Shown: positions 42,979 to 49,537 of the stretch, one piece after another | Layout of the letters: every line of letters starts with the position of its first letter | How positions within the stretch are numbered: the first letter of the stretch is position 1 | Assembly: GCA_038727135.1 (NCBI GenBank) | Contig: JAVYWL010000001.1 | Location: 512,001 to 576,000 of the forward strand | Reading direction: 5' to 3' | DNA from: Candidatus Bathyarchaeia archaeon | GTDB taxonomy: Archaea; Thermoproteota; Bathyarchaeia; Bathyarchaeales; Bathycorpusculaceae | DNA: 64,000 bases | Notes under the pieces: model-generated | Seen by the model: the letters and a program-made list of their open reading frames with translations, nothing else | Told to the model about the DNA's origin: nothing | Databases searched by the model: none | Program-made: the position numbers and the translations under genes

Positions 42979-43345
42979 GGTCTGTTCGCGAAAGAATTTT
43001 TTCTTAGAAAAGGGCTTTTACGCTTATGTGGGTTCTGGTCAAAAAAGCCTCGAAAAACGTCTTATAAGGCACTTTAGCAAGACAGGTAAAAAGCGCTTTT
43101 GGCATATAGACCACCTCCTCGCCATAAACGGCGTAAGTGTTGTAAAGGCTTTTTACAAGGAGGCTGCAAAACAAGAAGAGTGCAGAACTGCGCTAAGCCT
43201 TAGCGGTGTTGCTTTTTCAATTGATGGATTTGGTTGTTCTGATTGTAAGTGTGAAAGTCACCTCTTCCGTTTTGAAAGCTTAAGCCTCTTAGAGAATGCT
43301 TGTCTAAAGTTGGGTTTTAAGCTTTTCACCCTATCTTGCCAGTGA
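42893..43345 (+). CDS. GIY-YIG/DUF123 family endonuclease
   Basis: GVYVL, YAYVGS, WHIDHL, FGCSDCKCESHL. Confidence 0.88.
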   Translation: MKVVVCRRKGLVKGVYVLAISVSKNINVKVCSRKNFFLEKGFYAYVGSGQKSLEKRLIRHFSKTGKKRFWHIDHLLAINGVSVVKAFYKEAAKQEECRTALSLSGVAFSIDGFGCSDCKCESHLFRFESLSLLENACLKLGFKLFTLSCQ

Positions 43346-44107
43346 ATCGCCATATTGGGAGACGTCTGTTTTTTGGAGGATTTCCCTTCTCTTAACAACT
43401 TCTTCAAAGCTCATGTAGTCTCCGCCGACGATTTTCAGTTTAGCTTCAACCTTCTTATTTTTGACTTCTATAACGTTGTAGGAGTTGAGGAAGAAGCCCC
43501 TCAGCCTTTCACATGAGACGCTTCCAGCGTGAACCACCTGCATGTCTTCTATTCGCCACCTCCACGGTCTGTGGCGGTGCCCGCACAAGACTAAATCCGC
43601 CCTAGCCTTCACAAGACTTCTAAGGACGTCGCCAGCATCCACTATTGTGATTTGGTCTGCACCTGTGTCTGGAACTGGGATTATGTGGTGGTGTATTGCC
43701 ACAATTTTCACTCGGTCCTTATAATTTTCTAGGGTGTTCTCTAACCAAAGGTTTTGCCTATGACCCACTTCGCCGTCATCCCTGTCGGGGCGGGCGCTGC
43801 TCAGCACAATTATTACGGCGTCGTCGACCTCTGTTATTTGGTTGAAGGGGAAGAACTGTTTGAAAAGCAAATAACCCGTGGAACGGTAATCGTGATTGCC
43901 ACTTATGTAAATGACATTTTTGGCTTTCAAACGCTTAAACTCGTCTGCAGCCATCTTGAACTCGGATAATATGCCGTTTTCCGTTATGTCGCCAGTTATC
44001 ACCACGGCATCAGGCGACAAAGCGTTAATCTCGTCCATGGCGGTGCGGAAAATCACATAATTAAACATCGGTCCACAGTGAACATCCGAAATCTGAACAA
44101 TTAACAT
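43331..44107 (-). CDS. Calcineurin-like metallophosphoesterase
   Basis: SDVH, TGD, GNHD, HHH, GHRH. Confidence 0.92.
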   Translation of the reverse strand: MLIVQISDVHCGPMFNYVIFRTAMDEINALSPDAVVITGDITENGILSEFKMAADEFKRLKAKNVIYISGNHDYRSTGYLLFKQFFPFNQITEVDDAVIIVLSSARPDRDDGEVGHRQNLWLENTLENYKDRVKIVAIHHHIIPVPDTGADQITIVDAGDVLRSLVKARADLVLCGHRHRPWRWRIEDMQVVHAGSVSCERLRGFFLNSYNVIEVKNKKVEAKLKIVGGDYMSFEEVVKRREILQKTDVSQYGDSLAR

Positions 44108-44217
44108 GGCGTTTCGCCTTTCAAACCATGCAGAACAGCAACCAAAATAAATGTTGTGGAAATTAGAATATTCGGGCATTAAACGAAAACATGCTTGAAG
44201 AGCGTACCAAAATGAGC

Positions 44218-44239
44218 GAGGGTTGGTGTGTCTGGGTTA
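44218..44239 (+). repeat. attL core
   Basis: GAGGGTTGGTGTGTCTGGGTTA, identical to 48992-49013; preceded by the original host start ATG AGC at 44212. Confidence 0.95.
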
Positions 44240-44399
44240 GGATACCACTATTATTATTGTCATTAGTAGTGTTATTACTTATATTTTCCATCTTATTCCC
44301 TCAAATCTTATGTAGAGTAGAATAATTATTAAATTTTGTTAAAACTTATTTTTTAAGGGTATTTAAATAGGAGTAGAGATAAGAATAATATTGACCTCT

Positions 44400-44645
44400 A
44401 TGAGTAGAAAAGTAAAATTGTATGAGAGAGTGGAGCCTCCCCAAATTGTAAGACCCAGAAGAGTGGCAGAGTATGATGAACTTATTAAATCCATTGAAAG
44501 TGAACCAAAGGGATGGTATAAGGTGACAATTCCTAACAGAAAGCCTTCCACAATCTTTGTGGCTCTAGCTAAAAAACTCAGAGGTAGAAGAGACCTTAAA
44601 CTCCATTTCATAAACAAAACAGTATACATTGAAAAAATAGAATAG
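44400..44645 (+). CDS. Element small basic protein, possibly DNA-binding
   Basis: 81-aa K/R-rich ORF downstream of a TTTAAATA box. Confidence 0.65.
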   Translation: MSRKVKLYERVEPPQIVRPRRVAEYDELIKSIESEPKGWYKVTIPNRKPSTIFVALAKKLRGRRDLKLHFINKTVYIEKIE

Positions 44646-44773
44646 ATTCCTCTAATCTATATATATTAAGAGTTAAATCTAAGACAATTCCAAGTTCTAA
44701 ATAGTTACAGTACAATATAACAGTAAGGTTTAAAAGCCACTATACTACTTCTTGTACTACTTGGTGATAGGGT

Positions 44774-45418
44774 ATGTCTGATTCAAATATATTGTACCAT
44801 AAATCAAGAGATTGCATTATTGCCTCTAACTTTATTGAAGACCTTCCAATGAATTTGTCTGACTTAGAACAAAGAGCTATAGTAATATCAGCATTGGAAA
44901 AGCTAAAACAAAGTTTGAAAAATACTGATGTAATAACAGACATAGATATTCAGACTATTAGGCTTTATTGTTCTAAAATATTGGATTTAATAGATTATTT
45001 AGAAAAACAAAATAGTGAAAGCTATACGAAACTTATCAAATATCTAAAGGATACATTGAACATTTTAGAAGAATATATAAGAAGCTATTACCATAAGGTG
45101 GAAGCACTCCCAGAATATTCTAGATATGAAAAAGAGTACTGGGGAAGATATTTTACTGACAAGGATTATTATCCACCTTCTTATTATTACTGGAACAAAT
45201 ACACATCTAAAAGTAAACCCATCTTTAAATATATTGATAGAATTACTGGTAAATTAGAATTGACTGAAGAGGCTAAAGATGCAATATTCAGGGAAATAAC
45301 TGTACCTGACAGTAGAAAATACATTTGGGACAGACCTGAAATGACATTTGAGGAATTGATGCAGTATACTTTGGAAAAGTTACAAGAAAGACCAATGAGC
45401 TTAGGTCTAAAAGATTAG
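44774..45418 (+). CDS. Element hypothetical protein (may extend to 45531 through a frameshift)
   Basis: 214-aa ORF with upstream GGTGA RBS; no recognisable motif. Confidence 0.7.
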   Translation: MSDSNILYHKSRDCIIASNFIEDLPMNLSDLEQRAIVISALEKLKQSLKNTDVITDIDIQTIRLYCSKILDLIDYLEKQNSESYTKLIKYLKDTLNILEEYIRSYYHKVEALPEYSRYEKEYWGRYFTDKDYYPPSYYYWNKYTSKSKPIFKYIDRITGKLELTEEAKDAIFREITVPDSRKYIWDRPEMTFEELMQYTLEKLQERPMSLGLKD

Positions 45419-45532
45419 AACTTGAGGCTAAAGAACAACAAGAATTATCCCAAGACCCTTTACATGAAAAGATGGAATTTCTACTAAATGTTTGGTTACC
45501 TTGGGAGAAAAAGAGAATGGAGGAACAGTAAA

Positions 45533-45817
45533 ATGTCTAGGGAAATAGAACACATTAGTCTCCTACAGTTATTAAGTCACAATCCCTTAACACTAGGAGA
45601 GTTAGCTAAGCTAACTTGTGTTAATTCTGAAGCTAAACTCAATGTAATCCTAAACAAACTTGTCAAAAGAGGCTTTCTTGTAAAGTCTAAGACTATAGAT
45701 AATAGGAATCAATATATTATTACTTCTAGAGGATTGCTCTATTTATTCTACAAAATTATGGATAGGAAATTAAAAGAAGGTGATACCTATGTCACAGAAT
45801 CTAGAACAAACCCTTAA
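45533..45817 (+). CDS. Element winged-helix protein
   Basis: LSHNPLTLGELAKLT...LNVILNKLVKRGFLVK...YIITSRG; GGAGG RBS. Confidence 0.75.
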   Translation: MSREIEHISLLQLLSHNPLTLGELAKLTCVNSEAKLNVILNKLVKRGFLVKSKTIDNRNQYIITSRGLLYLFYKIMDRKLKEGDTYVTESRTNP

Positions 45818-46169
45818 ATCTCTAGAGGAAAGGATTAAAGAATTGGAGACTAAGTTTAAGGCTTTATCCTCTATCTTAGGTGAATATGTTGCACAACTAC
45901 AAGTTCTAGAGGAATCTCTAGTTAATACTAGAAATATTAAGAACACTATGACATTAGAAAAGAACAGTCTAGATTCCTATGCATATGATACTCAAGGAAC
46001 AACACCTAGAGAAAGACACATTGAACCTTCTATTCCACTATCTTCTCTAGCATTTGCTACTATTGAAGACTATGAAACTCCTACAGATGAATTGAAAAGA
46101 AAAATAGCTAATGTAGCAGAGCTTATAATAAAGACTGGTAACAAACTAGACTACATAAGTGCAAGATGA
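45789..46169 (+). CDS. Element coiled-coil protein
   Basis: LEQTLKSLEERIKELETKFKAL heptads; GGTGA RBS. Confidence 0.7.
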   Translation: MSQNLEQTLKSLEERIKELETKFKALSSILGEYVAQLQVLEESLVNTRNIKNTMTLEKNSLDSYAYDTQGTTPRERHIEPSIPLSSLAFATIEDYETPTDELKRKIANVAELIIKTGNKLDYISAR

Positions 46170-46215
46170 CAAAAATAGGGGGACTTCATCTTGTCCCCAT
46201 ATCAAGGTGGTGCCT

Positions 46216-46881
46216 ATGTCCCAACAAGTTAAATATGATGGAATGACTTTATTAAGATTTCCAGAACCTAAAAGAGATTATTGCTACAATGTTGGTAGAC
46301 TTAAAGAAGTGTTGGTTTCAGATTTGTCTGATGATATTCTCAATGATTTAGCAGAATTGCACTTTACATTGAAAGATAAGAATGCTGATGTTGTCTATAC
46401 AAAGACTAATTTAGCTCTTGAAGTTATGAATGTCTATAAACCTATACTGGATTATACTAGAATTAGAAGAATAAAGTCTAATCTTAAAGGATATAAATAC
46501 AAAGGCATCATAGTCTCAAGAATGTCTAAAGCCATGAAAAGAAGACTAAAAGGCATTCCTATCTTAGAACTTGGTTTCCAATTGCTTCCTTCTCATTATA
46601 TTTCCTTCTATAGTAGTAGACATTCCACTAAATATAGAAAATTTGTTAATAAGAGGACTATTAAGTATCTAGTTAACTGCCTATATTCTTTCTTTTTGAA
46701 GATTGGAGCTATTAAAAAGACTGTTTCCTCTAATAAGCCTAAATCTAGTTATGTAAATTCTATAGTAAATTCAAGGTTTAGTTTTAGGATAGACAATGTT
46801 AGGGATATTGTTGAAGACTTTTTGGAATATGTTTATCCATGGTTTTTAGAGGAGAGGGTAGGGTGGTTGTATGAAGGTTAG
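46216..46881 (+). CDS. Element hypothetical protein, possible PD-(D/E)XK fold
   Basis: NADVVY...LALEVMN pattern, weak match. Confidence 0.55.
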   Translation: MSQQVKYDGMTLLRFPEPKRDYCYNVGRLKEVLVSDLSDDILNDLAELHFTLKDKNADVVYTKTNLALEVMNVYKPILDYTRIRRIKSNLKGYKYKGIIVSRMSKAMKRRLKGIPILELGFQLLPSHYISFYSSRHSTKYRKFVNKRTIKYLVNCLYSFFLKIGAIKKTVSSNKPKSSYVNSIVNSRFSFRIDNVRDIVEDFLEYVYPWFLEERVGWLYEG

Positions 46882-46914
46882 CAGAGTAGCCTAGTTGAAT
46901 TCTTCAATGTACCA

Positions 46915-47223
46915 GTGGTAACTCTAAAAGATATCAAACAAGACCCTAAAATAGAATTTAATTGTTACTGCTGCACTAAGTCTAGATACTGTAGCAAATT
47001 CCAAGACTTTCTTGTTCTAAGAGAGAAGCTAAAAGGAATGAAACAATTAGCTTTGGATAGCAATATAATCAAAGCAAAAGAGGACTATAAACACTTGTTA
47101 AGGGAACTAAAGAAGGTAAGAAGTCTAATATGGAAATGTACAAGAAGAAGAACCTTTCTATTTGGACTAGGCTACAAGACATTTAGAATAGGTGGTATAG
47201 ATGAAAGAAGATGTAGAAGTTAA
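46915..47223 (+). CDS. Element Cys-containing basic protein
   Basis: CYCCTKSRYC...WKC. Confidence 0.6.
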   Translation: MVTLKDIKQDPKIEFNCYCCTKSRYCSKFQDFLVLREKLKGMKQLALDSNIIKAKEDYKHLLRELKKVRSLIWKCTRRRTFLFGLGYKTFRIGGIDERRCRS

Positions 47224-47533
47224 AACTGTTACTAAAGGAGTGATAGCAGGATTTACTAAATCCATAAATAGGATTAACAGATTAATAACTAAGAATCCTA
47301 AAAAGAGGAGTTTGATAAGAAGGTTAGAGAGAATTGGTAAATGCAATAATTGTAGTAGACCCTTTCAATTGGGTGAACAGTTCATACAAGTAGGACACAA
47401 TAAGTATCACTTAGAATGCTACAATAAAGCATTTCTAGAAGTACCTGATGACTTTACTCCAGAAGAGACATATTTTATAGAATATGGTACTATTCCATCT
47501 TATATAGTAAATACAGACAGTAAACACACATAA
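47201..47533 (+). CDS. Element zinc-finger protein (C-x2-C-x18-H-x2-C)
   Basis: CNNCSRPFQLGEQFIQVGHNKYHLECY. Confidence 0.7.
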   Translation: MKEDVEVKTVTKGVIAGFTKSINRINRLITKNPKKRSLIRRLERIGKCNNCSRPFQLGEQFIQVGHNKYHLECYNKAFLEVPDDFTPEETYFIEYGTIPSYIVNTDSKHT

Positions 47534-48084
47534 TGTAATAGAGTCAAACCCTCTCCTCTTTTTCTCTTCTCTTTTTACTTTTGTTTCCTTTTGACCATAA
47601 CCAAACCATAGGTTAGAACATAGACAGAGCCTATCTATGGAGATTTTTGTCAGTTCTTTTATAGGGTCTTGAAAAACTCCATTACTTATTTAGGATATAT
47701 CTAGACTAATCTAGAAACATAAAGAATAAAGAAAGACAAAAGGAAAAGCCAAAAGAAAACATAGACAAGACTCAAATTCTTTGTTTTTAAAGCACATTTT
47801 TATCTCTTATAGATTAGTGTAAGTGTATAGATAACACACATTTAACATTCAAAATAGAACATAGTGGAAGTGTGTTAAGGACATAGCCATTTAAGCCTAA
47901 CCTATGGTTTATATCACACATTAAAAGGTCTATTTTGTATTGACTTGGATTCTAGACAAATTGAATTAGACAAATTAGACCTTAAACATGCCTTAATCTG
48001 GATTCTAAATAGGTGATTGGACCTAAACAAGGTGAAATATATTCGAATTGTATAGAATGTAGAAAAATAGAGGATATGGAAAAG

Positions 48085-48984
48085 CTATTTCCTTTTCCTA
48101 AAGAGCATTATGTTATCAAAGGTTGTAACATAGTCATAGCCTTGTTCTATCAGACTTTTAGCTTCCTCTATTGTTTTAGCTACTGAACATACCCATTCAT
48201 TCTCATTGAAATTGACAAGGTGTGTGTAGATGAGAGTGTTTTGAATGGAGACATGACCTAGAATTTCTTTAACATACAAGATGTCTCTGGTTTTGTAGTA
48301 GGTCATAGTAGCTTTAAAATGTCTAAGACTTCTTAGAGTAATCATGTTTATTCTTGGATTTCCAAGTTTCTCAGCTATTTGTTTCCTTTTCAGTCTTAAT
48401 CTATCAGCAAAGTCTTCTAGTTTACTCTTATCATTATGTTTGAAGATGTAGATACTTACTCTAGGCAATTGATTCAACATAGCAATTGTCTGATTGGAAA
48501 CTTTAACTATCCTAGCCCTACTACCCTTAGCTGGATTATTAATTATTATAGTGTTGTTCTCAGTATTAACATCAGACCATTTAAGATTCCAAGCTTCTAT
48601 TGGTCTAGCTCCAGTATCCTTGATTACCTGACAGAAGGCAGCATACTTTAGACTTAAGCCTCCAATTAGAGCATTGATTTCACTTTCTAATGGTACAAAT
48701 GGAAGTCTATTGGTTCTCTTGTACTTTGGCTTTTCAAAGTTTATCCCTAGATATTGACAGTACAGAGCATAAGCATCTACAAGCTTCTTCTTGTAACTGT
48801 CAAGGTTCTTATTGGATATGAAAGCCTTAACCTCTTCAACATTGTTCAAGTCTACATGTTTACCTAAGTGTTTCAGAGCATAACCAATGGTTCTTAAAGT
48901 TGATTCCTTGTAGCCCTTGTTCTTAAGGTCAATGAGTAGGTTTATGATATTCTGGTTTTGTTGTTTAGAGAGTGGGTAACTCAT
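48085..48984 (-). CDS. Tyrosine recombinase/integrase
   Basis: TGARPIE (R), PAKG (K), RSLRH, LGH, TLIY (catalytic Y); abuts attR. Confidence 0.95.
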   Translation of the reverse strand: MSYPLSKQQNQNIINLLIDLKNKGYKESTLRTIGYALKHLGKHVDLNNVEEVKAFISNKNLDSYKKKLVDAYALYCQYLGINFEKPKYKRTNRLPFVPLESEINALIGGLSLKYAAFCQVIKDTGARPIEAWNLKWSDVNTENNTIIINNPAKGSRARIVKVSNQTIAMLNQLPRVSIYIFKHNDKSKLEDFADRLRLKRKQIAEKLGNPRINMITLRSLRHFKATMTYYKTRDILYVKEILGHVSIQNTLIYTHLVNFNENEWVCSVAKTIEEAKSLIEQGYDYVTTFDNIMLFRKRK

Positions 48985-48985
48985 T

Positions 48986-49537
48986 ATGGTTGAGGGTTGG
49001 TGTGTCTGGGTTACAGGGTTGCCGGGGAGCGGCAAGTCTGTTGTAGCGGAGACGCTTATCAAGTTTTTGCTTCAAAGGGGCATCCGCGCTCAACTTTTGT
49101 CTTCTGACGCTTTGCGTAAGGTTTTGACTCCTAAGCCAACATACTCGCTTGAGGAACGCGACATAGTTTACGCAACTCTTGTCTACATCGCTAAATTGCT
49201 AACGCAGAACGGTGTAAATGTTGTTATTGATGCCACTGGCAATTTGAGGCGTTATAGGGATAATGCCCGAAACCAAATCCAAAAGTTCATGGAAGCCTAC
49301 CTAGAATGCCCGCTTGAAATCTGCATTGAACGCGAATCCCGGAGGGCTGATACCCGCCAAGCGCCAAAACAAATCTATAAAAGAGCCTTGAAAGGCGAGG
49401 CGCCCACAGTACCCGGTGTTGGACAACCCTACGAGCCCCCACTGAACCCGGAAATAACAGTGAATACCGCCGAGTGCACGCCGGAGCAAGCAGCCCATAA
49501 AATACTTGAGGTTATTATTGGCAAGTGGTACGCCTAA
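48986..49537 (+). CDS. Adenylyl-sulfate kinase family P-loop kinase (integration target, restored)
   Basis: WVTGLPGSGKS, DALRK, YLECPLE, YEPPLNPE. Confidence 0.88.
   Translation: MVEGWCVWVTGLPGSGKSVVAETLIKFLLQRGIRAQLLSSDALRKVLTPKPTYSLEERDIVYATLVYIAKLLTQNGVNVVIDATGNLRRYRDNARNQIQKFMEAYLECPLEICIERESRRADTRQAPKQIYKRALKGEAPTVPGVGQPYEPPLNPEITVNTAECTPEQAAHKILEVIIGKWYA
48992..49013 (+). repeat. attR core
   Basis: GAGGGTTGGTGTGTCTGGGTTA, identical to 44218-44239. Confidence 0.95.

Follow-up and report, generated by a model that had tools for sequence, protein, structure and literature searches.

When an element integrates beside its own integrase gene, is that gene left whole, is it destroyed, or is it disconnected from its start? 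The question is raised by a window of 64,000 nucleotides from a Candidatus Bathyarchaeia archaeon (assembly GCA_038727135.1, contig JAVYWL010000001.1, positions 512,001 to 576,000), in which an integrase gene and a host kinase gene stand head-to-head at one end of a small integrated element (E1). Coordinates given without a contig name refer to this window. We consider it likely that the attP core of E1 lies inside the 5′ coding region of the integrase gene, with integration parting the gene from its start and excision rejoining it, and with expression switched off or down in the integrated state.

E1 extends from 44218 to 49013, as defined by a direct repeat, the GC content and the empty site. 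Counting both cores, it spans 4796 nt; the unit itself measures 4774 nt (~4.77 kb). The exact 22-nt direct repeat consists of the attL core (44218-44239) and the attR core (48992-49013), and it occurs nowhere else in the 7 contigs (1.55 Mb) of the genome. The attL core corresponds to codons 18-25 of the circular-form integrase (minus strand). The attR core corresponds to codons 3-10 of the kinase (plus strand) and is located 7 nt upstream of the ATG of the integrase body (minus strand). The GC content of E1 is 0.32, compared to 0.44-0.45 for the genome contigs. Counted per 500 nt, it is 0.30-0.36 in E1 and 0.41-0.52 in the flanks.

A genome of the same genus (G005) has the uninterrupted site, with the left flank, one core and the right flank in succession, save for a few substitutions. 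The same joint is found in hot-spring metagenome contigs from three runs, where 44217 is joined to 48992 with 4774 nt skipped and 22 letters in common. The depths of this joint are 110 in X1, 27 in X2 and 17 in X4, and X3 is without it. Pieces of E1 are also present in metagenome contigs, mostly at depths of 3-26. With both empty and element-bearing contigs in the metagenomes, empty and occupied sites coexist in related populations. E1 is confirmed as an integrative element of small size and precise bounds, from a lineage of hot-spring Bathyarchaeia. The circular junction of E1 was not found among the contig joints listed for the hot-spring metagenomes. No RNA sequencing run with the E1 region is listed, and 0.22 of the sampled words are present in the best DNA run.

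The integrase body (48085-48984, minus strand) has 299 codons and a complete PF00589 catalytic domain, and it starts with its own ATG two codons past the core. A single base, 48985, separates this ATG (48984, minus strand) from that of the kinase (48986, plus strand), in the head-to-head arrangement that a preliminary description of this DNA had reported. The integrase leader is located at the opposite end of the element (44240-44291, minus strand). It consists of an ATG and 16 codons that are unique to the left end, is rich in Asn and Thr, and is the counterpart of Int(N). The minus-strand ORF that starts at the ATG at 44291 crosses the left core and has 42 residues (44291-44163).

Joining the ends in silico by script produces one open frame of 27 + 299 = 326 codons, so the in-frame 326-aa integrase that had been predicted for the excised form is indeed encoded by the circle. 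In this form, 17 leader codons are followed by 8 core-encoded codons, 2 further codons and the 299-codon body, and a stop is located 4 codons upstream of the distal ATG at 44291. The earlier statement that a 27-aa leader is removed on integration needs to be adjusted, as 17 of these codons are unique to the left end but each end retains the 8 residues that the core encodes. The leader is of low complexity and too short for a domain, and no domain was detected in it. In the integrated state, the frame of the body continues without a stop into the upstream host DNA and reaches a TTG at 49062, for an ORF of 325 aa.

The two start codons differ in their expression signals. The leader ATG has a Shine-Dalgarno (SD)-like GAGG 11 nt upstream (44299-44302, minus strand) and a TATA-like TTTAATAA, the putative integrase promoter, that starts 42 nt upstream (44326-44333, minus strand; TTTAAT at -42). 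Both are at positions that are usual in this genome, whose 16S rRNA 3′ end reads ..GGATCACCTCCT. These positions were established in a survey, in 5-nt bins, of the DNA that precedes the first ATG in 942 ORFs with at least 200 codons. The SD-like 4-mers have a peak within -15 to -6, with 342 per bin at -15 to -11 compared to 54-78 in bins upstream of -20, and the TATA-like hexamers have a peak at -45 to -41, with 103 compared to 39-57 in bins upstream of -60. The combination of an SD-like 4-mer at -16 to -6 and a TATA-like hexamer at -50 to -36 is found at 5 of the 157 ATGs of E1. Neither signal is present, in the integrated state, at the body ATG at 48984 or at the TTG at 49062. The ATG at 44291 with its upstream GAGG and TATA-like box, reading through the core, was thus found where the preliminary description had placed it, and the proposal that integration cuts the expression signals off from the body agrees with the presence of both signals at the distal ATG and of neither at the body ATG.

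The 108-nt gap between 44291 and the first gene of the element, an 84-aa ORF on the opposite strand (44391-44645, plus strand), contains a second, divergent TATA-like box, and the gap has the layout of a putative divergent promoter region. The 84-aa ORF, divergent from the integrase leader, has its own TATA-like TTTAAA at -38 from an ATG at 44400. No match to it was found in Pfam or PHROGs. Of the non-integrase ORFs of E1, it alone has a homologue in another element, at the same position in L142 (42% identity over 73 aa), and we consider it a candidate for a regulator or a directionality factor. None of the seven ORFs of E1 besides the integrase is confidently named by PHROGs or Pfam, a weak MarR-like match (7.9e-4) being below the cut-off.

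Another reading of the same locus is that E1 behaves like elements with type II (pNOB8- or lambda-like) integrases. The 299-aa protein would be produced from the ATG at 48984 in both states, with attP a short distance before the gene. The distal frame would then be a by-product or a leader that is not translated, and integration would at most remove a promoter. The 299-aa ORF is intact and has an ATG, and the leader has no detectable domain, both of which are compatible with this reading. The ATG at 48984, on the other hand, lacks SD-like and TATA-like signals even though the SD peak of the genome is clear, and the distal ATG has both at the usual positions. An in-frame ATG before a stop is not rare by itself, however, and would be expected from shuffled upstream DNA in about one-fifth of elements (~3.2 of 15). 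The layout is found again in related elements.

The comparison set contains 31 related loci from other genomes and metagenomes. At 13 of these, an exact repeat of at least 16 nt is present: one copy precedes the integrase match by 44-116 nt, and the second follows 4.7-15 kb downstream. The other 18 loci are without such a repeat, with some of their contigs being cut and five having repeats of 12-14 nt only. Together with E1 and E2, a second small, low-GC element of the same genome, 15 elements were circularised. An in-frame ATG before a stop is found beyond the core in 13 of the 15 circles, the exceptions being L155 and E2. This number was reached in none of 2000 shuffles of the upstream DNA (mean 3.2, maximum 9). 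The preliminary description had named, as the observation that would speak against it, homologues that never have an N-terminal extension crossing att; instead, 12 of the 14 other elements gain an in-frame ATG. The count includes the near-duplicates L145 and L146, as well as L154 and L155, whose repeats are not clearly att sites and could not be linked to a target gene (neither a kinase nor a tRNA gene for L154). In the other frames, an ATG precedes a stop in 1 (frame +1) and 7 (frame +2) of the 15 circles. The value for frame +2 exceeds the shuffle mean, and it weighs against the reading of a parted gene, as does the lack of an extension in E2.

E2 is 5.1 kb in length (C1:307786-312937), and the 30-nt repeat at its two ends corresponds to the 3′ end of tRNA-Cys. 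The core is again within the 5′ frame of the integrase, which is 32% identical to that of E1 and whose end of the element is covered by L007. An in-frame GTG is contained in the core. The circle of E2 shows no ATG extension, and a TATA-like run is located just beyond the core.

The cores resemble tRNA 3′ ends in 11 of the 13 relatives, with ARAGORN confirming L142, L148 and L043 (and also E2) and the rest being assigned by eye. One of four SD-like 4-mers is present within 20 nt upstream of 7 of the 13 distal ATGs, as judged by eye, against a background of 26 of the 157 ATGs in E1. The leaders have 5-33 codons and are mostly polar, and several are rich in Asn and Ser like that of E1. In most relatives, the stretch from the core to the conserved body contains no ATG, which indicates that the integrase gene is truly parted there. 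As the comparison set holds no left end from a close relative (>60% identity), the leader of E1 itself is without direct comparative support.

In two of the relatives (L148, G380:C2, and L152, G125:C9), a second repeat, 18 nt of tRNA-Leu sequence, is present in the leader region, and 56 nt with an inverted repeat separate it from the 24-nt core. The attP of these elements looks like a tRNA 3′ half with an insert. The amino-acid similarity between the two leaders had been considered as a sign of a translated peptide and was dropped, because this stretch contains tRNA-Leu-like DNA.

The closest homologues bear on the start of the body. The codon equivalent to the body ATG of E1 encodes Met or Val in P0002, P0004, P0007 (the same as L029, with GTG) and P0008, Leu in P0003, and Thr in P0005. 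In this kinase-targeting clade, a codon that could serve as a start after the core (ATG or GTG, in 4 of 6 close homologues) is common but not universal. In addition, gene callers start four of the seven family proteins at this position, including P0001 of the window. Together, these observations suggest that the short form may be a real product, as the type II reading would have it. The Thr codon in P0005 argues against that reading, as do the in-frame ATGs across the core in 12 of 14 other elements, most of which have no ATG after the core. Taking both sides into account, we regard a type II arrangement as unlikely, and a gene that is parted by integration remains the preferred reading. The N-terminal read-through in P0003, P0005, P0008 and L029 is the antisense of the P-loop region of the kinase, like that in the 325-aa ORF of the window, so other assemblies use the same kind of target. 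Gene callers will mis-annotate such integrases, which they may truncate or, as in P0003, P0005 and P0008, extend into host sequence read in antisense.

Members of the family (E ≤1e-60) are present in 150 of the 401 genomes of the order, with a best non-self identity of 51%. Metagenome contigs provided at least 80 loci. Among the matches listed, L029 is the only one in the kinase-targeting clade, with its left end missing, and none of 80 metagenome loci among these matches has a terminal overlap that would suggest a circle. A protein scan of viral contigs found no relative, and the core pattern had 0 matches. In isolated phages and plasmids, nothing exceeds 30% identity, and a scan of genome contigs returned nothing but an unrelated Pedobacter match.

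The target of E1 is a host APS-kinase-like gene of 183 aa (48986-49537, plus strand; PF01583, 8.6e-31). Its first two codons (ATG GTT) and all of the DNA upstream are derived from the element. The displaced native 5′ region of the kinase is located at the other end of E1 (44108-44217, plus strand), and consists of the old intergenic region and ATG AGC (44212-44217). It is nearly identical to the empty site in G005, and now continues into the integrase leader read in antisense, in a fused ORF (44191-44325). Among the kinase loci of 11 relatives, 9 have a protein that starts with M/L/V-G-E-G-W, with Gly as residue 2, and a conserved upstream region.

In two genomes of the same genus, G003 and G004, the kinase starts with M-V-E-G-W like that of the window, and the upstream DNA is unrelated. 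The match to the read-through ORF of the window is limited to the first 28-36 residues. In G003 (L021, C11), a frame-shifted remnant of the integrase N-terminus, ~80 nt in length, is located beside the kinase gene. In G004 (L022, G004:C2), a short integrase 5′ remnant accompanies the element-type kinase start (Val as residue 2). Neither locus has an integrase body, and a second copy of the core is absent from both assemblies. We read these two loci as the probable scar of an older integration, in which the element-derived start of the kinase has become fixed. An ORF of 618 aa in G003 and of 789 aa in G004, with a hydrophobic N-terminus, follows the scar, and next to it is the same metallophosphoesterase gene that the window has.

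With E1 in place, the DNA before the kinase start (48900-48985, plus strand) is all derived from the element and is the antisense of integrase codons 1-28. An AT-rich TTTATGATA is found there ~37-45 nt before the kinase ATG, with no match to the strict list of TATA hexamers. As the kinase genes of the scar genomes are intact, the element-derived upstream region may well drive expression of the kinase. At the other end of E1 (43331-44291, minus strand), the putative integrase promoter and the leader point across attL into the host metallophosphoesterase gene, the likely start of which is the minus-strand ATG at 44107. As the promoter and this gene are on the same strand, the element may add read-through transcription.

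The scars raise the possibility that E1 itself is a trapped, decaying remnant, in which the layout has no present function and the continuity of the frame is a relic. Two genomes of the genus carrying just the scar, with the element-type kinase start and a short integrase 5′ remnant, and the lack of a circular form among the listed joints would be in line with this. On the other side, the repeats of E1 are perfect and all its ORFs are open. Moreover, integrases at least 90% identical to that of E1 are found in five other assemblies (one of them on a contig of 5,371 nt), empty and occupied sites coexist in related populations, and the residues of catalytic type are invariant in the homologues. 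A decaying remnant is therefore very improbable.

The integrase body matches Phage_integrase (PF00589) with an E value of 4.9e-16, the sole Pfam match even at E up to 10. Residues R127, R221, H244 and Y253 are invariant in 9 homologues (the A1 profile), and we take them to be the catalytic Arg, Arg and His and the Tyr nucleophile of the enzyme. By these features of its sequence, the enzyme is assigned to the tyrosine recombinase superfamily. The preliminary description had pointed out a resemblance to the split integrases of SSV1 and pTN3. The resemblance holds for the architecture, with attP in the ORF and the gene split, but not for the protein family. PF16795 is absent from the E1 integrase at E up to 10, whereas the SSV1 integrase, as a control, matches it at 1.5e-61 in the same library. 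An hhalign comparison of the A1 profile, which is shallow with 9 sequences, to the SSV1 integrase gives a probability of 0.2% and an E value of 0.27. There is no SSV-type chain among the PDB profile matches at E up to 0.01, and the best solved relatives in this search are XerA proteins (5hxy, 4.4e-14; 4a8e, 4.3e-10). The motif R218-x-x-R221-H222 is invariant in E1 and 8 close homologues and, if placed by the canonical box, would read RxxR, not KxxR. The SSV-type catalytic signature is given as R..KxxR..Y in the accessible part of PMC8371274.

All the named homologues are proteins of Bathyarchaeia or Bathyarchaeota MAGs, except for one labelled Nitrososphaeria. In a quick, unrooted FastTree of 100 distinct bodies, all 66 forms with a zinc ribbon are in one group of 77 rows (support 91). 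The 23 short forms that fall outside this group include E1, which pairs with L029 and L154. A tRNA gene found by ARAGORN overlaps or abuts the 5′ frame at 17 of 61 short-form loci, compared to 1 of 69 zinc-ribbon loci (duplicates kept). The genome of the window holds seven more intact paralogues and one that is broken by a TAG stop (C2:9702-10375). Five paralogues (L002-L006) carry an N-terminal zinc ribbon of ~100 aa, and one is the integrase of E2.

These results can be combined into a model for E1. In the circle, the TATA-like promoter at ~44330 would drive an mRNA whose first ATG, at 44291 and with an SD, would lead to a 326-aa integrase translated through attP. E1 would recombine with the identical 22 nt in codons 3-10 of the host kinase. 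After integration, the left end would retain the leader with its start codon, SD and promoter, pointing out toward the metallophosphoesterase gene. The body would be at the right end, at a distance of 4.8 kb, antisense to the kinase it faces and without signals, and as a result its expression would fall. Excision would restore the expression of the integrase. In the process, E1 also swaps the promoter and the first two codons of the kinase. As initiation is led by an SD, and the core plus 6 nt before the body is fixed by the host target, the start must lie beyond the core and be read through in frame. The layout thus appears to be forced by SD-dependent initiation beside a fixed att core.

For SSV-type integrases, both pieces are taken to be inactive after integration. 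In E1, the C piece still has an ATG, and its PF00589 domain is whole, together with the helices upstream of it. As this remaining body is complete, low-level expression could still allow self-excision. Integration therefore probably turns the expression of the integrase down without destroying the enzyme. We read the layout as a type-I-like ('suicidal') partition that belongs to another lineage of integrases and has an N-terminal piece of very small size. We would extend this more tentatively, with somewhat less than even confidence, to the lineage as a whole. A XerA-like lineage that is widespread in Bathyarchaeia may have reached self-splitting independently of SSV, pTN3 and pT26-2, with an N piece that comprises the promoter, SD, start codon and a short leader and serves as a reversible expression switch. 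E1 would be the extreme case, in which the start of the body is kept, the 5′ end of a kinase gene is targeted, and the promoter and start swap is fixed as a scar in two sister genomes.

The closest parallels in architecture are the type I (SSV-type) integrases of SSV1, pTN3 and pT26-2. As in these, the attP of E1 is within the ORF, and a promoter-proximal N piece and a catalytic C piece are at opposite ends of the integrated element. The core is at codons 18-25 of 326 in E1, compared to about codons 63-78 of 335 for the annotated 44-nt site of SSV1. Unlike in SSV-type integrases, the C piece of E1 is predicted to be the whole enzyme, integration is into a protein-coding gene at its 5′ end and not into a tRNA gene, and the host belongs to Bathyarchaeia. 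How a trapped element excises is a paradox for the classical split integrases, and a C piece that is a whole enzyme softens it. The idea that a C piece is still expressed is not new, as relatives of pTN3 have a start codon in frame close to where int(C) begins, and the tRNA promoter may provide its transcription, according to the accessible part of PMC8371274. E1 is a natural test case for partition as a control of directionality.

Type I integrases, with attP inside the ORF, are described in the accessible parts of PMC8371274 and PMC7253208 as restricted to archaea, with geothermal hyperthermophilic hosts, the PF16795 domain and a single origin. A second, unrelated self-splitting lineage, if true, would argue against confinement to one superfamily as put forward in those parts, and the layout would be a recurrent solution rather than a one-off. 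In the literature searched, there is no report of a self-splitting architecture in Bathyarchaeia or outside the SSV superfamily, though supplementary tables may list Bathyarchaeal families.

The type II systems share other features with E1. As in pNOB8, an intact integrase ORF is located beside the reconstituted target after integration (PMC3293823 and PMC8371274, in their accessible parts), and the catalytic domain is of the classical PF00589 type. The attP of type II elements is separate from the ORF. In E1, the 299-codon ORF is likewise unchanged, yet the frame, the SD and the TATA-like signal continue across the core. A further parallel is provided by Thaumarchaeal elements in protein-coding genes, where the element supplies a replacement gene end and the host ORF stays open, as in E1 (Krupovic et al. 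2019, PMC6563490, accessible part). All 14 of the cases described there are 3′-distal with the stop codon replaced, whereas E1 replaces the start codon and the promoter region. Integration at the 5′ ends of genes can rewire host promoters.

The E1 integrase has the two-domain layout of XerA. XerA, however, is a chromosomal dimer-resolution enzyme, whereas the E1 enzyme is encoded on a mobile element with its own att. Finally, in the circular intermediates of transposons and IS elements, a junction promoter is built from two halves when the ends join. The expression signals of E1 are likewise connected to the gene only when the ends are joined. Unlike at those junctions, a whole putative promoter and a start codon are joined in E1 to the coding body, by way of an in-frame att core.
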